From the NCBI GenBank assembly GCA_052327205.1, contig CM126208.1:268336001-268400000 (forward strand): 64,000 bases of DNA, read 5' to 3'. Under the pieces are notes generated by a model. It was not told where the DNA came from, ran no database searches, and was given only the letters and a program-made list of their open reading frames with translations. This DNA comes from Somniosus microcephalus (Eukaryota). Shown piece after piece: positions 9,333 to 62,086 of the stretch (the first letter of the stretch is position 1; every line of letters begins with the position of its first letter). Position numbers and translations under genes: made by a program.

Positions 9333-10481
9333 GGGGGCATTTTTACCTGGGGGGGAAAAAAAGGGTGGGTTTGGAGTGTTGGGGGGGGGGGTAGTTAAAT
9401 TGTTAAAAATCGGAATCCCGACCTCAACCCGCCCACTTCTGGTTTTAATGGAGGTGGGATGGGGGCAGGCAGCCAACCCGCTGCCAGGAGGCGGGACATC
9501 AATGTAAATATTACAATGAGACTGGAAGCCGCCTCTTTAACTACCATTTTGTGTTTAACTGTAGCTAGTCAGGTTTTGCACACATTGTAACATGCAGCAG
9601 TCACAGCAAGGCGAGGACTGCTACATCCAGGAGGTAATTGCCTTTACACTTACTTCCTGAATCCAAAGTCCCTGCCTAGCCCACCCCCCACAATTGAAGA
9701 CCGTCTCACGACTGTCCCACTTTACAGCCTTCCGGGCTCAATATAGAGTTCAACAATTTCAGATCATAACCTCGGCCCCTATTACATTTTTACTTATTTT
9801 TTATCCACACCTTTGTTTTGGTTTTTCCCTTCCCCCCCCCCTCCCCCCGCTTTCCTTTTTTTTCTCTCTCCCACATGGCAGCTGTCTCCCATTCTGCCAG
9901 CGCATTTCACACCTAACCTAGAGCCGTCTTTTGTCTCCACTAGTCCTATCGCCATCTTGTCTCATTTTGAATACCTCTTAATGTCTCTTCTTCTGTTTTG
10001 TTCTCTCCCAGCCTGGCCTCTTAATCTATTTCATTCCCTGTGCCTCTTTAGTCTTGATAAAGGGGTTTGACCCGAAACGTCAACTCTAATTTCTCTCCAC
10101 GGATGTTGCCTGGCCTGCTGAGTTTTTCCAGCATTTTCTGTTGTTACCTCCGATCTCCTTCCCGGACCTCCCTCCCCCGCTGATGATCTTGAGGCCAGCC
10201 ACAATCTTCCTCACCGCCCCGCCCACCCCCGGTCTCTCAACAGCCCCAATCTTTCTCACCAGCCCCCACCCGATCCCTCCTTCCCTCCTCTGTGTGGCCT
10301 TCCTGCCTGCAGCCAGCCAGCCTCTCCATCTGGCTGGCTGCGGATGGGAAACAGGCTTCAGATGCAAATCAGGCCCCGCCATTAAAGTCAGCAGGGCCTG
10401 CGGGAAACCCGTTCTCCCAGGTTTCCCACCCGCATCAGAGCTCCCTTGCCCCCAACCCGCCTTCCCCATGAAAATCCAACC
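9333..10481. mobile_element. Related GGG..CCC MITE, interrupted by a Penelope fragment
   Basis: Starts GGGGGCATTTTTA, ends TGAAAATCCAACCC; internal similarity to the same MITE group. Confidence 0.55.
9700..10145 (+). mobile_element. Penelope-like 3' fragment nested in a MITE
   Basis: TLQPSGLNIEFNNFRS* followed by a pyrimidine-rich pLTR and a degenerate hammerhead (CTTGATAAAGGGGTTTGACCCGAAACGTCAACT). Confidence 0.7.
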
Positions 10482-15700: not shown

Positions 15701-16090
15701 AACCTGCGGCCTGCCTCCTAAGATGCTACAGGACGGTGAAGATATAATCAGTAAAATGGTTTCAATCTATAGCTCACGGCACCCCCGGCCTGACTCCAGC
15801 CCCAGAGAGTCTGTAACCGACCCCGGCCCCAGAGAGTCTGTAACCGACCCGCAGACAATACAAAATGCAGAATATCAGCTGTTCTCTGAAGAGCCCCGCG
15901 TGGGTTAGTTGCAGAAAATACCAAGAGTCTCACTCCTCCCAGAGTCTTGACATCTCCTGATCAATGCATCTTGTTCCATAAAAGGTATTCGGAACGGGAG
16001 AGCCGCCTTTCCCCCGACCGCTGTTAATTTCGCTCGGTGATCGACCATCACCGGGAGACAGCTTGTACTCACATACCCCGCACCCGTACT

Positions 16091-16345
16091 AAAGCAAAAT
16101 ACTGTGGCTGCTGGAATCTGAAATAAAAAAACAGAAAATGCTGGAAATACTCAGCAGTGCAAAGAAAAAAACAAAGTTAAACGTTTCAGGTCGATGACCT
16201 TTCGTCAGCACTGCCTTCAGACTCATTCGCCTTGTTCGGACTAGATTACCTGATGAAAGGTCATCGACCTGAAACGTTAACTCTGTTTTTCTCATTCCAC
16301 AGATGCTGCCTGACCTGCTGAGCGTTTCCAACATTTTCAGTTTTT
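16091..16345. mobile_element. Penelope family B inverted pLTR pair with hammerhead cores on both strands
   Basis: Minus core CTGACGA..GAAACGTT at ~16176-16212, plus core CTGATGA..GAAACGTT at 16250-16282; flanking arms are mutually inverted. Confidence 0.8.
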
Positions 16346-17079
16346 ACCCTGTATTCTCTCCCCTGTATTCGTGGTCCAAATAGGGATCTCAACAGATATG
16401 GTCGCGCATTTAGTTTGAGCGAGTTATTATTGGGGAATTTATACACGGGCCTAACCTTTCTTTCGATTTCTCTGGAGAAATCCCGAAAGTGGGACCAAGT
16501 AATGTCTAATAACGCGCTGGACTGGGGATTATTTATTTGTTATGTCACCTTCTGTGAGGAGATGCCATTAAATCCCGAATCCCTGCGCACCCCGAGCGCT
16601 CTCCTTTGTGACGGGAGATTCCTGTTATTCCTTTGCCTATTTACCAATACCAGGTGAAACACACGGCCCAGTCTGTCTGGCTGCTGATTTATTTCGTTGC
16701 CTGCTGATATTGGCGGCCCCAGAAAGCAGCAACCACAGATTGAGGTTCGTTTCAAAACGGAATAAGGCGATTTTAAAAATAACCTTTTCACAAACGACCT
16801 GATTGTCCGCTATGCTCATTTTCTGACCATTCCTGTTTATTGCAGTGAGATTGAGAACTACAAATAGAGATGGAAGAATTTCAGAAATCTATTTATTTTT
16901 ATAATGGATTTAAATAACTATAAACACCCCAGAGTGGAGAGCGGCATCAGGGTATATGTGAACGCTGTTTGTTGATGTTTTCAGAATCCAGCGACTTCAA
17001 AATAAACTCTGGACAGCAGTAAGTGCCCATCGCTTGCAGTGTGGAGGCTGGTGTTGGTTTTATAGAGTAGACCAGAAGC

Positions 17080-17790
17080 GCAGACATTGTCCCCGGGCGC
17101 CTACATTCAAGGTGCTCTATACAGGCAAGTTGTTGGTGTTGTGACGGGCTCCCCCGGGACTGACGGACACTCTGTCCATCCCTCAATCCCCAGTCTGAGC
17201 TCCTTCGAGATTCCAGGTATTTGGAAATTCCGTGAACTGAACTCGGGAGAGACCGCGGAAAAAAAAAACCATGGGAACAAAACGGAAATGAAATGACGCG
17301 GGGACGAAAGTGGATCGGATTCCCAGCGCTGGGTGTTCCTGAGATGGGTTTGCTCAGCTAACGGGATTACAAGTTTCGGGATTTTTTTATCTGCTCGCTT
17401 TTCCTTCACTTCCTCGCCACGATCCATCGCCTGTTTATTGACGGACCGGTGCGAGTTTTCACATCGCTCCAATAGTTTACCCTCCCTCTACAATGTCGTG
17501 TGGATAAAACCGCTGCCGAACTTGTCGTCCGCTCGCAGTAGATTTCTCTCCCCCTGGGGACCCGGTGCTCGCCTGCCGTGTGTGTGTGGATTCGGTGGAG
17601 TGGTTTACTTCCTCTCTCTCGCTGTCTGTGTCTGTGGCTCGGTCTACCCTGTCCAGCCCGGTCCGTTCTCTTTGTCGGTCTCCACCGTGCCAGTGTCCCG
17701 GCGATGGCTCCACGCTCTCCCTCACACTCCCTCCTGCTCAGGATCGCTTGTCTTCTCATCATCAACGGTGTTCGGGTCCAAGCACACGGT
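17080..17790 (+). promoter_or_regulatory. CpG-rich promoter / 5'UTR region of SUSD5
   Basis: Clearly raised CpG density relative to flanks, non-repetitive, directly upstream of and including exon 1; TSS not determinable. Confidence 0.6.
17704..17788 (+). CDS. SUSD5: SUSD5 coding exon 1 (signal peptide MAPRSPSHSLLLRIACLLIINGVRVQAH)
   Basis: ATG in GCGATGG context within a CpG-rich region; hydrophobic signal-like peptide; donor G|GTCAGT at 17789; phase 1 joins exon 2 to give ...QAHG-KMFVL. Confidence 0.8.
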
Positions 17791-17989: not shown

Positions 17990-18830
17990 CAATTTTTTCC
18001 GACGTATCCAATTCCCTTTTGAAAGTTATTATTGAATCTGTTCCCACCACCCTTTCAGGCAGTGAATTCCAGATCACAACAACTCGCTGCATTTAAAAAA
18101 AAAAATTCATCTCCCCTCTGGTTCTTTTACCAATAATCTTAAATCTGTATCCTCGGGTTAAGGACCCTCCTGCCACTGGAAACAATTTCTCCTTATCCAC
18201 TCTTTTTCAAAACCCTTCATAATTTTGAACACATCTATTAAATCTCCCCTTAACCTTCTCTGCTCTAAGGTGAACAATCCCAGTCTCTCCACATAACTGA
18301 ATTCCCTCATCCTTGGTACCATTCCAGTAAATCTTTTCTGCACCCTCTCCGAGGCCTATGCCTATTTAATAGGATCCATGAATATAGTTTAGATCATAGG
18401 AACAGTGGGTCTTTGAGCCTGTTCCGCCATTCAATGAGATCATGGCCGATCTGTATCTTAACCCCATTTACCTGCCTTGGGTCCGTAACCCTAATACCCT
18501 TACCCAACAAAAATCTATCAAACTCAGCTTTGACATTTTCAGTTGACCTCCAGTCTCATCAGCCTTTTGGGGGAGAGTTCCAGATTTCCACTACCCTTTG
18601 TGTGAAGAAGTGTTTCCTGTCATCACCCCTGAACCTCTGATTTTAAGGTTATGCCCCCTTGTTCTGGACTCTCCCACCAGAGGATATAGTTTCTCTCTCT
18701 CTACCCTATCAACTCATTGTAATCATCTTAAACACCTCAATTAGATCGCCCCCCTTAATCTTCTATGTTCGAGGGAATACAAGACTCGTCTATGCAGCCT
18801 GTCCTCATAATTTAACCCTTTTAGCCCAGG
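17990..18830 (-). mobile_element. Two adjacent CR1 3' fragments
   Basis: RLGLFTLEQRRLRGDLIDVFKIM; RVVVIWNSLPERVV; second fragment 18395-18830. Confidence 0.8.
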
Positions 18831-19110
18831 TATCAGAGGTCTACTGTGTAGGTCCATCTTTCTGAATAAATTTGTGTTGTAATAAAATGGCTATAATTTA
18901 ATGTAAACTTTTTTGATTTGAGTTGCTAAGAGACTTAGACCCAATTACAAGCTAGCCATTGATTTGTGAATCTTTCTGATCAGAACCAAATTGTATTGTG
19001 GAGAGTCCAAATTATTTATTGAATTGCAAAAAGTTTCTGAGATCAAAATGGGTTCATGAGGAACATGAAGTTTCATGACCTGATCTTGCACAGCCTCTGA
19101 TCATTAATGA

Positions 19111-19291
19111 CAACAGAAAATGCTGGAAACACTCAGCAGGCCAGGCAGCATCAAAGTTCTGATGAAGGGTCCCAGACCTGAAACGTTAACTCTGTTTCTC
19201 TCTCCACGGATACTGCCTGTCCCGCTGAGTGTTTCCAGTATTTTCTGTTGTTACTTCAGATTTCCAGCATCCACAGTATTTTGCTATTGTA
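19111..19291 (+). mobile_element. Penelope-derived palindromic mini-element (family B) with hammerhead ribozyme, SUSD5 intron 1
   Basis: 15-bp TSD TCTGATCATTAATGA at 19096-19110 and 19292-19306; inverted arms CAACAGAAAATGCTGGAAACACTCAGC / GCTGAGTGTTTCCAGTATTTTCTGTTG. Confidence 0.85.
19155..19191 (+). ncRNA. Minimal type I hammerhead ribozyme (sense to SUSD5 pre-mRNA)
   Basis: AGUU-CUGAUGA-A-GGGUC cca GACCU-GAA-ACGU-U-AACU: intact core, stems I and II, GUU cleavage triplet. Confidence 0.8.
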
Positions 19292-19462
19292 TCTGATCAT
19301 TAATGAGTTTGCTTTACACCCTTGTATGTTCTATCGACTTAAAGGTTTACATTTATTGCATATTTGATGCCTGTTCTGAGCTATCATTTTATTTTGAAAT
19401 CCAATTTACAAAAAAAAACTTCAATATATAGATAGCTTGTAAAAAAAAACTACATTTGTGAA

Positions 19463-19862
19463 ATAGAACGACTTGCATTTCTATAGCGCCTTTCACAACC
19501 TCAGGATGTCCCAACGTGCTTTACAGCCAATGAGAAGTGTAGTCACTGTTGTAATGTAGGAAACACGGCAACCAATTTGCACATATCAAGCTCCCACAAA
19601 CAGCAATGTGATCATGACCAGATAATCTGTTTTTTAGTGATGTGGGTTGAGTGATAAATATTGGCCAGGACACCGGGGAGCACTCCCCTGCCCTTCTTTG
19701 AATAGTGTCATGGGATCTTGGCAGACGGGGCCTCGGTTTAACATCTCATCCAAAAGACGGCACCTCTGACAATGCAGCACTTGTTCAGTACTGCACTGGA
19801 CTGCCAGCCTAGATTTTGTGCTGAAGTCTCTGGAGTTGGCCTTTAACCCATGACCTTCTGAT
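19463..19862 (-). mobile_element. DeuSINE, near full length
   Basis: Reverse complement of the 4512-4955 type. Confidence 0.85.
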
Positions 19863-20432: not shown

Positions 20433-20945
20433 CAAAAGCAAAATACTGCGGATGCTGGAAAACTGAAATAAAAACAGAAAATGCTGGAAATACTCAGCAG
20501 GTCAGGCAGCATCTGTGGAGAGAGAAACAGAGTTAACGTTTAAGGTCGATGACCTTTCATCTGAACTGGAAAAAGTTAGAGATGTAACGGGTTTTAAGGA
20601 AATGCAGAGGCTGGGAAAGGGGGGGGGGAAGGGAGGAAAGAACAAAAGGGAAGGTCTGTGATAGGATGGAAGGCAGGAGAGATTAAATGACAAATGGGAT
20701 GATGGTGCAAGGCGAAAAGGGGTGGTGATAGGACAAGTAAAGAAACTAAAGATGGGTCTAGAGGAGGTGTAAATGGCAATAGCAGAATCATTACCAACAC
20801 CTGCTGCCCGAAAAAATGGGAGCAGTGGTTATGGTCTGAAAATGTTGAACTCAATGTTGAGTCCAGAAAGCTGTAAAGTGCCTAATCAAAAGATGAGGTG
20901 CTGTTCCTCGAGCTGCCATTGAGCTTCATTAGAACAGTGTAGAGG
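20433..20945 (-). mobile_element. Penelope-like element 3' fragment (GIY-YIG C-terminus + pLTR, mutated hammerhead)
   Basis: Minus strand encodes HCSNEAQWQLEEQHLIF*LGTLQLSGLNIEFNIFRP*; pLTR shares family B arms; hammerhead boxes mutated to CAGATGA / TAAA. Confidence 0.8.
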
Positions 20946-21104
20946 TCACATGATGGGTGTAATTCTCAACCAAGAGAATCAAAGTCAATGAAAACTGGAT
21001 TATTGTGACATGAATAAAAGTGGATGCAGTTCCAGAACTTTACACCTATGTCACTCCTGGAGCTGAGATACGAGACAGCGTCTTATTCATTTCTCTTGTC
21101 CCAG

Positions 21105-21282
21105 GGAAGATGTTCGTGCTCCGGCCAAAGAACGGGACCGCGCAATGGGACATGACCGCGGCCCGAGGCTTGTGCACAGAGCAGGGAGCACGTCTGGCCA
21201 CGGCTGAAGAGCTGCAGCGAGCGGTGGAGGAATGCGCGTTCACAGAGTGCACCGCCGGCTGGATTGCAGGCAACCGGATCGG
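21105..21282 (+). CDS. SUSD5: SUSD5 exon 2 (Link/hyaluronan-binding domain, N-part)
   Basis: Acceptor tttctcttgtcccag, donor GG|GTAAGG; encodes GKMFVLRPKNGTAQWDMTAARGLCTEQGARLATAEELQRAVEECAFTECTAGWIAGNRIG, a Link-module pattern (C..GA.LA...EL....C..GW); 178 nt. Confidence 0.93.
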
Positions 21283-21416
21283 GTAAGGACTACCCTCAAA
21301 TAACGGGGGAACCAGCATCAGCCAGCAGTCATCCTGACTCCAAGCGACCACTGGTTCAAGGCTTTAGCCCAAACCTTTCACACATTTGTGCTGGTTGGGG
21401 AAAAATGACGGGAGGC

Positions 21417-29058: not shown

Positions 29059-29174
29059 GATGACTGTGTGCAGTAACGTGGGCTTTGGCCAACAGGACCT
29101 CCAAACCATCCATGTAAAAACTGAAGCAGCTTCTTCAAGTGGTCGATATGATTCATTCTGCATTAAAGACCAAG
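29059..29174 (+). CDS. SUSD5: SUSD5 exon 3 (Link domain, C-part)
   Basis: Acceptor ctatttacacccag, donor G|GTTAGT; encodes MTVCSNVGFGQQDLQTIHVKTEAASSSGRYDSFCIKDQ; 116 nt, phase 2 to 1, fits both neighbours; absent from the ORF track. Confidence 0.9.
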
Positions 29175-46689: not shown

Positions 46690-47184
46690 CTACACAGGAA
46701 AAGCAAACATTAGCTCTCGGACTGCAGCCCGACACACATTATAATTCTAGGTTCATTCACCGTTAGCCGTACTGCAAAATGACCAACTTATACACACACT
46801 GATCCAGTTTTGTTCTTCCTGTGAAATAATAGTTTTTGTTCTTAAACAAACCATCAAAATTTCTCAATTTTTGAACATATTTCTTCTATTTAATCCTGCA
46901 GTGACATTTATTTGCAATGAAGAAATACTCTGAAATCACGGTGTGCAGGGCTGGGAAAGCACAGTTCAGTCACTTCCCACTGAAGGCAATTCGTTGCAAA
47001 TCACACACTCAATTTCCACAATTCCAACAAATATGAAAGATTGTAGTTTATAGTCAAATGTGGCGCACACACATTTGCTGATTTCATTTTACATCACAGT
47101 CGGTTATGGATTAATCACATACCTTAAAATTCAGCTATCAAAATCCTTGAAATATTTAGTTAAAATCTATTCTCTAATTATATA

Positions 47185-47980
47185 ATAGCAAAATAGTGCA
47201 GGTGCTGGAAATCTGAAACAGAAAGTGCTGGGAAACATAAGAAATAGGAGCAGGAGTAGGCCAATCGGCCCCTCGAGCCTGCTCCGCCATTCAATAAGAT
47301 CATGGCTGATCTGATCCTAACCGCCAATCTACTATCACAGAACCATCTCCTGAATCGAACAGAATTAGACACACGAAATAGGAGCAGGATCAGGCTACAC
47401 GGCCCCTGGGCCCGCTCCGCTACCCACAGGGCCGTGTCCGATCCGAACCTAGACTCATGTCCAAATTCCTGCCCGCTCCCCGTAACCCTTAATTCACTTT
47501 ACTTCTAGGAAACTGTCTATTTCTGTTTTAAATTTATGTAATGATGTAGCTTCTACAGCTTTTTGGGGCAGCATATTCCATGGACCTACCACCCTCTGAG
47601 TGGAGTAGTTCCTCCTCATCTCAGTTTTGAAAGAGCAGCCCCTTATTCTAAGACTATGCCCCCTAGTTCTAGTTTCATCCATCATCGGGAACATCTTCCC
47701 TGCATCCACCCGATCCAACCCCTTCACAATCTTATATGTTTCAATAAGATCGCCTCTCATTCTTCTGAACTCCAATGATTAGAGTCCCAATCTACTCAAC
47801 CTCTCCTCTCATGGCCATCCCCTCATCCCCGGGATTAACCGAGTGAACCTTCTTTGTACTGACTCGAGAGCAAGTATGTCCTTTCTTAAGCATTGAAGGG
47901 TTCGACCCGAAACATTGACTCTGTTTCTCTCTCCTTGATGCCGCCTGACCTGCTGAGTGTTTCCAGCACTTTGTTGTTAT
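47185..47980. mobile_element. Penelope family B palindrome enclosing a CR1 3' fragment (47235-47890, minus)
   Basis: Left arm 47185-47234; right part with partial hammerhead GGGTTCGACCCGAAACATT at ~47897; TAATTATAT on both flanks; inner ORF EFRRMRGDLIETYKI... Confidence 0.7.
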
Positions 47981-49616
47981 CTCTGTAATTATATGTTGTT
48001 TTCAGATCTTGTGCTTTATTTTGGATTGTACTCTCTACATCATTAGCACATATCTGCCCAACTCAACAGGACAGCAGAGATGATTAAATATTTGCCCAAA
48101 AATATAAACTGCACGTGTGAGCTAACGCCACATGATACATGTGAAATTTCATACGTGACTATATTGTGTCTCTGCATCAAAAAGAGGCCAGTGAAAAAGA
48201 TACTGCACCTGTTCTTAAACTTTTGAGAAAATGTAGTTTTGAATACCAATGGCATAGCTCATTGATACAGATTTTAAATAAAAAGTGAGACAGTGTTACA
48301 AATAGTTATTACGCTGAACTCTATCCTGGATTAAAGGTGATAAGTGTTACAAATGACGGTTAAATTAGTCGTCTCTCTGTGCAATCCAGGCTACAGTTCC
48401 CATTATGGGCAGCTTCAAGTAATTGTTGAGAGCGCAGGGTGTAGAATAAATGAGATCAGATCATTAGACTCTCTGAGCTACAGCATTGCCTGGAATAAGA
48501 GTAAAACCCAAAACCTGTCAGCGCTATTGATTCAACAAATACTCTTGCAGTGATGGGATGAGCATGGATTCCTGTTCGTAACTAGGTCTCCCTTTACTGT
48601 CTAAAAGAAAAAACACATCAAAAATAAATTGTGATGACCCAAGTATAAAATATTTATGGGATTAGAATCCACTTTTGTAAGTAATTCATTAAATGTTCAA
48701 TACTGGCAATTTTGAGATTTATTGAAATGTTCCAGAGGAAGAAGGAGATTCACGTTGCTTCGCTCTAGAGCTAGTTGACCTGACCTCTGGGTCTACACAA
48801 CACAAGTGAGAAGTGGCAGCCTAAGAATTAGGAGCAGGAGTAGGCCATACTGAGCTTGCTCTGCCATTCAATAAGATCCTGGAAAGTGCTCCACACCAAC
48901 ACTAAACTCGAAGCGTAACCATACCCATAGTTAGCTGTGTTTTATGGTGCAGTCACACTGTACGTCTAACTTTGGTACAAAGTGGTTTGCGCTTCAGACC
49001 GAAGCTTCAACTTGGAGTGTAAATTGGGTATCGAGGCCCAAACTGCCTCTGAAGTAAAGCAGAGTGGGACTGCTTTCTCGACTGAGTCTCACTCCTCTTC
49101 GGTCCAGTGACTCTGGATTCAGGCTGCAGTCGCACTGCAACTGGTGTGCAACAAAGCCACTTCTCATTGACACTATAGTGTGAACGCAGCCTACATTAAG
49201 TATCTTCCATCGTACACTCAGATTAAACTAGGATTGATCCTGTTAAGTAACAAATATACTCTCCCACTGAACAGCAGTTAAAACCATGAGCAGTTACTCC
49301 AAACTATGCCAATTAAACCCAAGACTACACTAAAAAAGAATATTTTGGTCAGAACATATTCTCAGGGTCATCTAAATATGTCCAACTTTCCTTTCATGTC
49401 TTGTCTTAGTGTAAGATGGTAATTACACACTGTATGTTTAGCACCTATACTAGCAGTTTCATGCTACTGTTAGACTTTAGTAGTGTTCTTGCAAGCAAAC
49501 AGGGATATCTTCACATACATGAGAAATATGTGCCCAATATATAGACTGTGGGGTAAGAAGTGTTTTATGTACATTTTGTCATGCTGTCACCATTAGTTAC
49601 ATTTATCACAATAGCT

Positions 49617-60264: not shown

Positions 60265-60520
60265 GTCAGCCATGGTTCAGTGCTACCATTCTCACCTCAG
60301 AATCAGAAGTCCCACTCCAGAGACTTGAGCACAATATCTGGGCTGACACTTCAGTGTAGTACCAAGGGAGTGCTACACTGTCGGAGGTGCTGTCTTTTGG
60401 ATAAGATGATAAACTGAGGCCCCATCTGCCCTCTCAGGTGGATGTAAAAGATCCCATGGCACTGTTTGAAGGGGAGCAGGGGCTGCTCTCCCCATTGTCC
60501 TGGCTAATATTTATCCTTCA
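60265..60520 (+). mobile_element. DeuSINE 5' two-thirds
   Basis: Head + Deu domain, truncated where the minisatellite begins. Confidence 0.8.
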
Positions 60521-61685
60521 GTACTGCCCCTCCGACAGTGCAGCGCTCCCTCAGTACTGCCCCTCCGACAATGCAGCGCTCCCCGAGTAGTGCCCCTCCG
60601 ACAATGCAGCGTTCCCTCAGTACTGCCCCCGACAGTGCAGCGCTCCCTCAGTACTGCCCCTCCGACAGTGCAGCGCTCCCTCAGTCCTGCCCCTCCGACA
60701 GTGCAGCGCTCCCTCAGTCCTGCCCCTCCGACAGTGCAGCGCTCCCTCAGTACTGCCCCTCGACAGTGCAGCCCTCCCTCAGTACTGCCCCCTCCGACAG
60801 TGCAGCCCTCCCTCACTACTGCCACCGACAGTGCAGTGCTCCCTCAGTACTGCCCCCGACAGTGCAGCGCTCCCTCAGTACTGCCCCCGACAGTGCAGCG
60901 CTCCCTCAGTGCTGCCCCTCCGACAGTGCAGCGCTCCCTCAGTACTGCCCCCGAAAGTGCAGTGCTCCCTCAGTACTGCCCCTCCGACAGTGCGGCGCTC
61001 CCTCAGTACAACCCCTCCGACAGTGCAGCGCTCCCTCAGTACTGCCCCCGACAGTGCAGCGCTCCCTCAGTACTGCCCCTCCGACAGTGCAGCGCTCCCT
61101 CAGTACTGCCCCCGAAAGTGCAGTGCTCCCTCAGTACTGCCCCTCCGACAGTGCGGCGCTCCCTCAGTACAACCCCTCCGACAGTGCAGCGCTCCCTCAG
61201 TACTGCCCCCGACAGTGCAGCGCTCCCTCAGTACTGCCCCTCCGACAGTGCGGCGCTCCCTCAGTACAACCCCTCCGACAGTGCAGCGCTCCCTCAGTAC
61301 TGCCCCTCCGACAGTGTGGCGCTCCCTCAGTACTGCCCCCGACAGTGCAGCGCTCCCTCAGTACTGCCCCCGAAAGTGCAGTGCTCCCTCAGTACTGCCC
61401 CTCCGACAGTGCGGCGCTCCCTCAGTACTGCCCCTCCGACAGTGCAGCGCTCCCTCAGTACTGCCCCTCCGACAGTGTGGCGCTCCCTCAGTACTGCCCC
61501 CGACAGTGCAGCGCTCCCTCAGTACTGTCCCTCCGACAGTGCGGCGCTCCCTCAGTACTGCCCCTCCGACAGTGCGGCGCTCCCTCAGTACTGCCCCCGA
61601 CAGTGCAGCGCTCCCTCAGTACTGCCCCCCCGACAGTGCAGCGCTCCCTCAGTACTGCCCCTCCGACAATGCAGCGCTCCCTCAA
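60515..61685. repeat. 31/33-bp minisatellite derived from DeuSINE (CTCCCTCAGTACTGCCCCTCCGACAGTGCAGCG)
   Basis: Unit is the reverse complement of the SINE segment CAGTACTGAGGGAGTGCTGCACTGTCGGAGG; ~36 units; ends in a minus-strand SINE head (~61685-61765). Confidence 0.95.
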
Positions 61686-62086
61686 TAATAGAGAAATGTC
61701 AACCTTGATTATGTGGGCTTGAACCCATGACCTTATGGCAGAGGTCAGAGAGCCACGGTTGATATCCAAGAAGGGGCCTTCCTGATGTGCTGCATCCTGC
61801 GAGCCAAACTCCAGCCTGCCCTTGCAGGTTTATTGGCCACATTAAATCCAGTGCCACACCAGGATCTACAGATGCCGGTTAGATACCCTGGTACAAGCTC
61901 AGCGGAAACTCACCGTCATTGCCCTGGGAGCTCACATTGTGAACTCCATCTTTACTTGAGAGAAGCGACTGGACATCAGCAGAGATGTACTTGGTCACTT
62001 GTATGACATTTGCAGCCAATTCTGTGTATATAATTGTTTTAAACCAGCACCACTCCTCAAACCCGATTTACCAGCCGTTTACTCAC

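Follow-up and report, generated by a model that had tools for sequence, protein, structure and literature searches.

A short inverted end of a Penelope-like element, with a minimal hammerhead motif, in intron 1 of SUSD5 of Somniosus microcephalus

Background

Insertions of Penelope-like elements (PLEs) with an inverted pLTR, a tail on one side and a target site duplication (TSD) are described in the consulted parts of PMC3846280, PMC8557442 and PMC8969392. According to these parts, the EN+ PLE insertions Pen2a_Av and Pen2_Av (PMC3846280; scheme in PMC8557442) have a head-to-head inverted pLTR, a 30-40-nt tail at one end only, a TSD, a 5' truncation and an open reading frame (ORF) running through the pLTR, and the shark family considered here shares all these features. 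However, the shark copy analysed below is only 181 bp long and has no ORF between the arms. The TSDs are 9-17 bp in the shark and 8-10 bp in the rotifer examples given there, and tens of thousands of ends in the shark contrast with single copies in rotifers.

Minimal hammerheads, in the consulted part of PMC4209133, have a 4-bp helix I, an extra base between positions 9 and 10.1, a pair at G10.1 and palindromic positions 15.2-16.2; they are mostly single dispersed motifs from truncated elements, and opposite-strand pairs 100-700 bp apart are on record. The shark motif is of this kind. On the other hand, its helix II has 5 bp, position 10.1 pairs with U rather than C, and sharks are not named in that part. 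The same source reports no cleavage for single minimal hammerheads and little for dimers, and eight of nine Xenopus (frog) dimers did not cleave (bioRxiv 10.64898/2026.07.22.740005, consulted part).

In PAc, a Poseidon element of the green anole (Frangieh et al. 2024, PMC11167929), both DNA strands are cleaved and extended, a dimer is predicted, and the hammerhead depends on protein. As in the shark family, two internal starts of reverse transcription bound the tail, the hammerhead overlaps the start of the ORF, and the templates are mostly uncut at the hammerhead. Non-LTR retrozymes, in the part of bioRxiv 10.64898/2026.07.22.740005 that was available, are non-coding and pLTR-related and contain a type I hammerhead, like the shark copy. 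However, every unit of a retrozyme has its own hammerhead, and the units follow each other head to tail in tandem. The shark copy consists of one head-to-head unit that has one hammerhead and a junction of its own, and thus it was not assigned to this class.

Results

Structure of the insertion

The analysed stretch of DNA, called the window, covers 64,000 nucleotides of S. microcephalus contig CM126208.1 (assembly GCA_052327205.1). Its relevant features are listed in Table 1. Coordinates in the pLTR are counted from the C of CUGAUGA (position 0, window position 19159).

Table 1. Features of the insertion and of the neighbouring SUSD5 exons, in window coordinates
Feature	Position	Strand	Basis
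SUSD5 coding exon 1, upstream of the insertion	17704..17788	+	tblastn with three shark SUSD5 proteins, 70-87% identity; GT donor at 17789
Left TSD, 15 bp	19096..19110	+	exact repeat
Inverted arm, reverse complement of pLTR +50..+91, tail-less	19111..19152	-	starts near the short start site
Arm junction, two bases AA	19153..19154	+	sequence
Direct arm, pLTR -4..+132, 5'-truncated at the family hot spot	19155..19291	+	mapping onto the Penelope-like element
Minimal type I hammerhead: 4-bp helix I, extra A after A9, 5-bp helix II, palindromic ACGU	19155..19191	+	pattern; features as in the consulted part of PMC4209133
Unmirrored 3' part including the Penelope "tail" of about 35 nt, between the 3' ends at about +97 and +132	19252..19291	+	bimodal 3' ends of 96 copies; PMC11167929 and consulted part of PMC8557442
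Right TSD, 15 bp	19292..19306	+	exact repeat
SUSD5 exon 2, Link domain, end approximate	21104..21283	+	tblastn, 82-90% identity

The initial annotation had described a palindromic 181-bp unit bracketed by a perfect 15-bp direct repeat. The repeat (TCTGATCATTAATGA) is exact and constitutes the TSD. The palindrome is real as far as two inverted arms of 43 nt are concerned (19110-19152 and 19209-19251, complementarity 91%), but the last 40 nt have no mirror and correspond to the Penelope tail, and thus the unit is palindromic in part only. The predicted fold of the 181-mer has z = -9.8, and equal stability was seen in none of 200 shuffles. If five partly matching bases of the TSD are counted, the inverted arm maps to +96..+51. 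The direct arm differs from the majority of 46 copies of the same subfamily at eight positions, none of them inside the hammerhead.

The distance of the window copy to its nearest sampled relatives, which include ORF-bearing copies, is 5-6%. On a contig of a relative, 26 letters of the element are joined to the right flank of the insertion. This hints that the insertion is old and common to a relative, and the 5-6% distance agrees with that. Among the joints listed, in a table dominated by repeats, none represents an empty site.

Hammerhead motif and its predicted fold

Helix I of the motif is formed by AGUU (19155-58) and AACU (19188-91). It is followed by CUGAUGA (19159-65), an extra A, helix II GGGUC/GACCU (19167-79) and GAA-ACGU-U, with the predicted cut after position 19187. 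Thus C3UGANGA9, GAAA, UH, helices I and II and a palindromic helix III are all present, and the earlier parse as a complete minimal type I hammerhead stands as written. The pattern has a single match in the window and none in 100 shuffles. Cut sites of the U-U type are slower in hammerheads than those of the U-C type. The scan with hammerhead models that had been suggested as a check was negative: in Rfam, no hammerhead family matched at E<=1, and two chance matches were the only ones.

In the predicted fold of the window copy the core UGAUG pairs with the inverted arm with probability 0.84-0.98, and the core GAAAC pairs with the downstream GUUUC. Folds competent for the hammerhead make up 7.5e-5 of the ensemble (about 1e-4) in the window copy and from 1e-7 to 2e-4 in three native contexts, by folding energies that take in neither tertiary contacts nor protein. 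The GAAAC-GUUUC pairing (pLTR +21..+39, window 19180-19198) is predicted here and in two of the three native contexts, and GUUUC is conserved. One possibility is that this pairing may serve as a built-in off state.

Within the motif, subfamilies vary only at N7, at one G-U/A-U pair and in loop II. This is the pattern expected if the motif is under selection in the parent element; however, the same stretch is also coding, which confounds the comparison. The intact motif is kept in 22 of 48 copies of the unbiased sample.

Parent element

The exact core occurs 7,299 times in the genome (3,631 + 3,668; control 0), and the downstream 22-mer, with one constrained flank base, 23,965 times. Two samples were considered, both confined to the first 55 Mb of contig C1. 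One consists of 65 core matches taken in the order of the list, the other of 96 anchor matches, left from the first 100 once four near-identical duplicates had been removed. The sequence shared upstream of the core extends over 0 to 1,500 bp in the 65 copies and leads into an ORF.

The ORF upstream of identical ends encodes motifs of reverse transcriptase (RT), a CX4CxxC linker (CKLRRCNTC or CKRRRCNTC) and a CCHH GIY-YIG domain. The latter matches PF01541 with E 8.5e-4 and 20 bits, which is under the cut-off of 22.6, and the motif IYCIRCSRC..LYIG can be read in the sequence. The ORF has 831 homologues, including shark and ray proteins, many of them with PF00078 and PF01541. A CX2-5CxxC linker before the endonuclease marks the Neptune and Nematis clades (PMC8557442, consulted part). 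Judged by this motif, the parent is a 3,079-bp Penelope-like element of the Neptune/Nematis type; in this it differs from PAc, as the linker is absent from Poseidon. In rays, two proteins that carry annotations as host-gene isoforms (P0003 and P0013) are 65% identical to the element ORF, which suggests exonisation or mis-annotation.

A whole unit of 3,079 bp was found at locus L093 (4075-7226), and its reading frame continues through the pLTR. The 5' part of the ORF is preceded by a 5'-truncated copy in 29 of 30 loci by BLAST, and in the thirtieth by a short tail remnant seen by eye. Thus the units form partial tandems, which give rise to pLTRs. The inserted copies show a 30-40-nt tail at one end, an inverted 5'-truncated pLTR and a TSD. 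No spliced retrocopies, with an element exon joined at -2, were found among the mapped segments.

Ends of the copies

The 3' ends of 96 copies are bimodal: they fall within +84..+109 or +129..+133, with two between, so that there are two preferred ends, a short one at about +97 and a long one at about +132. The 5' ends are spread from +50 to beyond -1,380. TSD-like repeats of 9-17 bp (score of at least 9) flank 51 of 164 sampled closed units, as compared to one of 150 mismatched flank pairs, and this lone control pair is an artefact caused by a reference that ends inside an element. Among closed inverted units the same score is reached by 20 of 34.

The junction is distinct in each of 35 inverted units, of which the 26 short ones measure 131-263 bp. 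These observations bear on the two origins that the initial annotation had considered for the insertion. An extremely truncated and inverted Penelope copy, inserted in a single event, is borne out by the shared 3' ends, the passage into the ORF of a PLE and the exact TSD. The other origin, a retrozyme- or SINE-like non-autonomous family, had been tied beforehand to fixed ends among genomic copies. Two 3' ends are indeed shared, but the 5' ends and inversion junctions vary, and therefore the independent family fails by the very test named for it. The window copy is thus a real, clean and ordinary Penelope-like stub.

Inverted units and the integration mechanism

Single-arm copies use either 3' end freely (65 short, 49 long, 2 unclear). 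In contrast, 32 of the 35 inverted units combine one long and one short end, two being ambiguous and one having two long ends (binomial p 2e-7 against 0.5). The arm that reaches further in the 5' direction is that of the short start in 18 units and that of the long start in 11, with 3 equal and 3 complex cases. As either arm may be the longer one, plain fold-back copying of one arm from the other does not account for them. The arms of a unit agree at 103 of 120 subfamily sites, a level reached by none of 2,000 shuffles (0.53 +/- 0.07). The exception is locus L080, where the arms belong to different subfamilies and agree at one of six sites. The identity of the arms is 0.884 within units and 0.867 between units (p 0.028), which gives weak support to one template.

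Taken as a whole, the window insertion is best described as the 5'-truncated, 5'-inverted pLTR end of a 3.1-kb PLE, likely dual-primed, with the hammerhead as a passenger; we put the probability of this reading at about 0.9. The likely course of events is as follows. The element protein would make a cut in each DNA strand, with about 15 bp between the two, and each cut end would prime reverse transcription at a different one of the two internal start sites of the RNA. The cDNA from the +132 site would stop at -4, the strong stop of the family at the 5' edge of the hammerhead, and the cDNA from the site at about +97 would stop at +50. Finally, the two cDNAs would be joined head to head and filled in, yielding the palindrome and the TSD.

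Priming from two ends at a staggered cut, with one cDNA per start site, is inferred from the statistics of the ends, namely the pairing and the arm data, and from the behaviour of PAc with its cleavage and extension of both strands, two start sites and predicted dimer; we consider it probable, with room for doubt. One alternative keeps the same parent, and derives the mirror arm from fold-back (self-priming) of one cDNA or from an antisense template, with the short end produced by endonuclease resolution. Such fold-back was proposed in PMC3846280 and PMC8557442, as far as the consulted parts go. It yields one long and one short end and arms of the same subfamily, junctions often lie in self-complementary parts of the hammerhead, and an asymmetric central deletion could mimic the observed arm lengths. 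However, the tail-less arm is the longer one in 18 of 32 simple units, and a copy of a tailed cDNA would need a later deletion there; besides, the short end is also found alone with TSDs (L035, L038, L164, L168), and both ends correspond to RT start sites in vitro in PAc (PMC11167929). Thus fold-back seems rather unlikely, and two-ended priming is preferred.

Hot spot of 5' ends

The 5' ends of 40 of the 72 copies at risk lie within -11..+10, that is, 22 nt. This corresponds to 0.034 per nt and is about a 12-fold increase; the rate is 0.002-0.003 per nt upstream (15 in 5,420 nt; p 8e-19) and 0.006-0.009 per nt downstream (24 in 3,387 nt; p 7e-10). The hot spot is seen with both start sites (23 short and 10 long simple copies), and 15 of these 33 copies have an adjacent TSD with score of at least 8. 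The end of the direct arm of the window copy at -4 falls in this region. The hot spot coincides with the 5' strand of helix I and overlaps a likely splice acceptor TTTTTCCAG, which is kept in three subfamilies; the intron of D. virilis ends at the equivalent place (consulted parts of PMC4209133 and PMC2377424).

Several possible causes of the hot spot were considered. A hidden subfamily with another upstream sequence does not fit, as the flanks of non-inverted copies are unrelated and do not align. The start of transcription is not supported by the whole units, as only one of 23 has the upstream pLTR ending there. The hot spot is weak in these pLTRs; among first-pass copies of the subfamily concerned, 7 of 45 end in it (p about 0.25). 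The hammerhead cut site is not a common 5' end: 7 of 96 ends are at +25..+33, with no excess over the neighbouring positions, and 3 of 30 whole units begin at +24..+33. As the cut site is not a preferred end, most templates were uncut. Our best guess is that the hot spot results from stalling of the RT at a folded, protein-bound hammerhead.

A tentative extension, which we consider possible though somewhat short of probable, would combine this roadblock with obligatory two-ended priming: a protein dimer on one RNA would start one cDNA at each end of the tail, at a cut staggered by 9-17 bp, and both polymerases would tend to stall at the 5' edge of the hammerhead. Neither the obligatory pairing of long and short ends nor a 5' stop hot spot is described in the main text of the PAc report (PMC11167929).

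Two further observations on 5' ends were made. The whole unit at L093:4075-7226 has its 5' end exactly at the predicted hammerhead cut (+29), a single case. A lesser accumulation of 5' ends is seen at about -26..-38 (L040, L049, L176, L178, L190 and others), at CTTAAT. This sequence resembles a branch point for the putative acceptor and is also AT-rich and of the endonuclease type.

Short copies as a separate family

Another explanation is that the window copy belongs to a family of short hammerhead copies that propagates itself like a SINE or retrozyme and is mobilised in trans. The hot spot does yield many copies of similar size, inverted units shorter than 300 bp make up 20 of 91 units in the unbiased sample, and retrozymes were proposed to be derived from pLTRs (bioRxiv 10.64898/2026.07.22.740005, in the part available). 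However, besides the 35 different junctions, short copies show no preference for short nearest neighbours (0.38 as compared to 0.52 expected, and 0.63 as compared to 0.61), and no alignment column of the unbiased sample splits short copies from long ones at p<0.02. Thus the short copies do not group apart, and neither fixed ends nor private diagnostic mutations characterise them. There is no tandem array at the window copy, and ORF-bearing copies are among its nearest relatives. This makes a separate family very unlikely, and an ordinary stub remains the preferred reading of the window copy.

Position relative to SUSD5

Further exons of SUSD5 map at 29060, 38400 and 42769 on the plus strand. 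As exons 1 and 2 flank the unit on this strand, its placement in intron 1 in the sense orientation, made in the initial annotation, is confirmed. The further suggestion that the ribozyme could cleave the SUSD5 pre-mRNA fares worse. A dimer is needed, and no second sense core exists between exon 1 and the stop codon (17704-44019); the sole other sense core near SUSD5, at 16250, is upstream of exon 1. Since the window hammerhead is predicted to be folded shut and lacks a dimer partner in the SUSD5 coding span, cleavage of the pre-mRNA by it is unlikely, and the insertion is likely to be harmless.

Expression data bear little on this point. Two RNA runs, of which 24 and 31 in 100 were read, gave reads neither for SUSD5 exon 1 nor for the unique flanks and are uninformative for the locus. 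Family reads from two fragmented cDNA libraries do not pile up at their beginnings or ends within the element, including the vicinity of 19187, although this test is weak.

A regulatory role, with the ribozyme of an otherwise ordinary stub cutting or in some other way regulating the SUSD5 pre-mRNA, might be suggested by the sense orientation in intron 1, the hammerhead free of subfamily differences and the hint of an insertion common to a relative, but it is extremely improbable: the absence of all eight differences from these 37 of the 137 positions is compatible with chance (about 0.08), about half of the unbiased copies (22 of 48) also keep the motif intact, minimal hammerheads are inactive as single motifs and nearly so as dimers in the sources cited above, and the core is predicted to pair with the inverted arm, with no second sense core in the coding span.

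Other copies and repeats

A second inverted unit of the same family, from the ATC-loop subfamily, is located upstream of SUSD5 exon 1 (16082-16346). It consists of a tailed minus arm (16082-16213) and a tail-less plus arm (16250-16346), with cores on both strands and 36 nt between them. Intron 1 contains an antisense 5'-truncated copy (20433-20956, minus strand) with a tail and possibly an imperfect 10-bp TSD. Further fragments of the element are found at 10069-10158, 47181-47237 and 47894-47983. The window also contains a tandem array and, flanking the element, other high-copy repeats (60514-61688, 17994-18835, 19470-19700); family reads of the repeats at 17994-18835 are abundant in both RNA runs.

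In L003-L012 and L021 (contigs C35 and C38) an inverted unit lies inside a larger segment that is repeated at least 11 times with identical flanks, and this unit has spread by duplication rather than by transposition. At L092, a Gypsy-like LTR retroelement lies between two long inverted copies, which share about 60 bp past their 3' ends.

Conclusions

In the main texts of open papers, neither a tally of long and short ends in inverted units nor a hot spot of 5' stops was found, and a hammerhead in the pLTR of a shark element was not described there either. As far as searched, the pairing (32 of 35) and the hot spot (40 of 72) go beyond the published record.

The window copy taken alone is ordinary, and sense-strand intronic hammerhead matches in sharks should be treated with caution, as they are mostly such stubs. 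The family, on the other hand, provides a large body of natural data on an integration mechanism that is still little understood. The strict pairing of long and short ends yields a sharp prediction that can be tested with the in vitro system already in use for Penelope, and the stop near the 5' edge of the hammerhead suggests a role of this motif other than catalysis. If the tentative scheme of obligatory two-ended priming with a roadblock is true, the hammerhead would act not as a cutter but as an RT roadblock that mass-produces stubs and hairpins of 100-260 bp, several thousand per shark genome.
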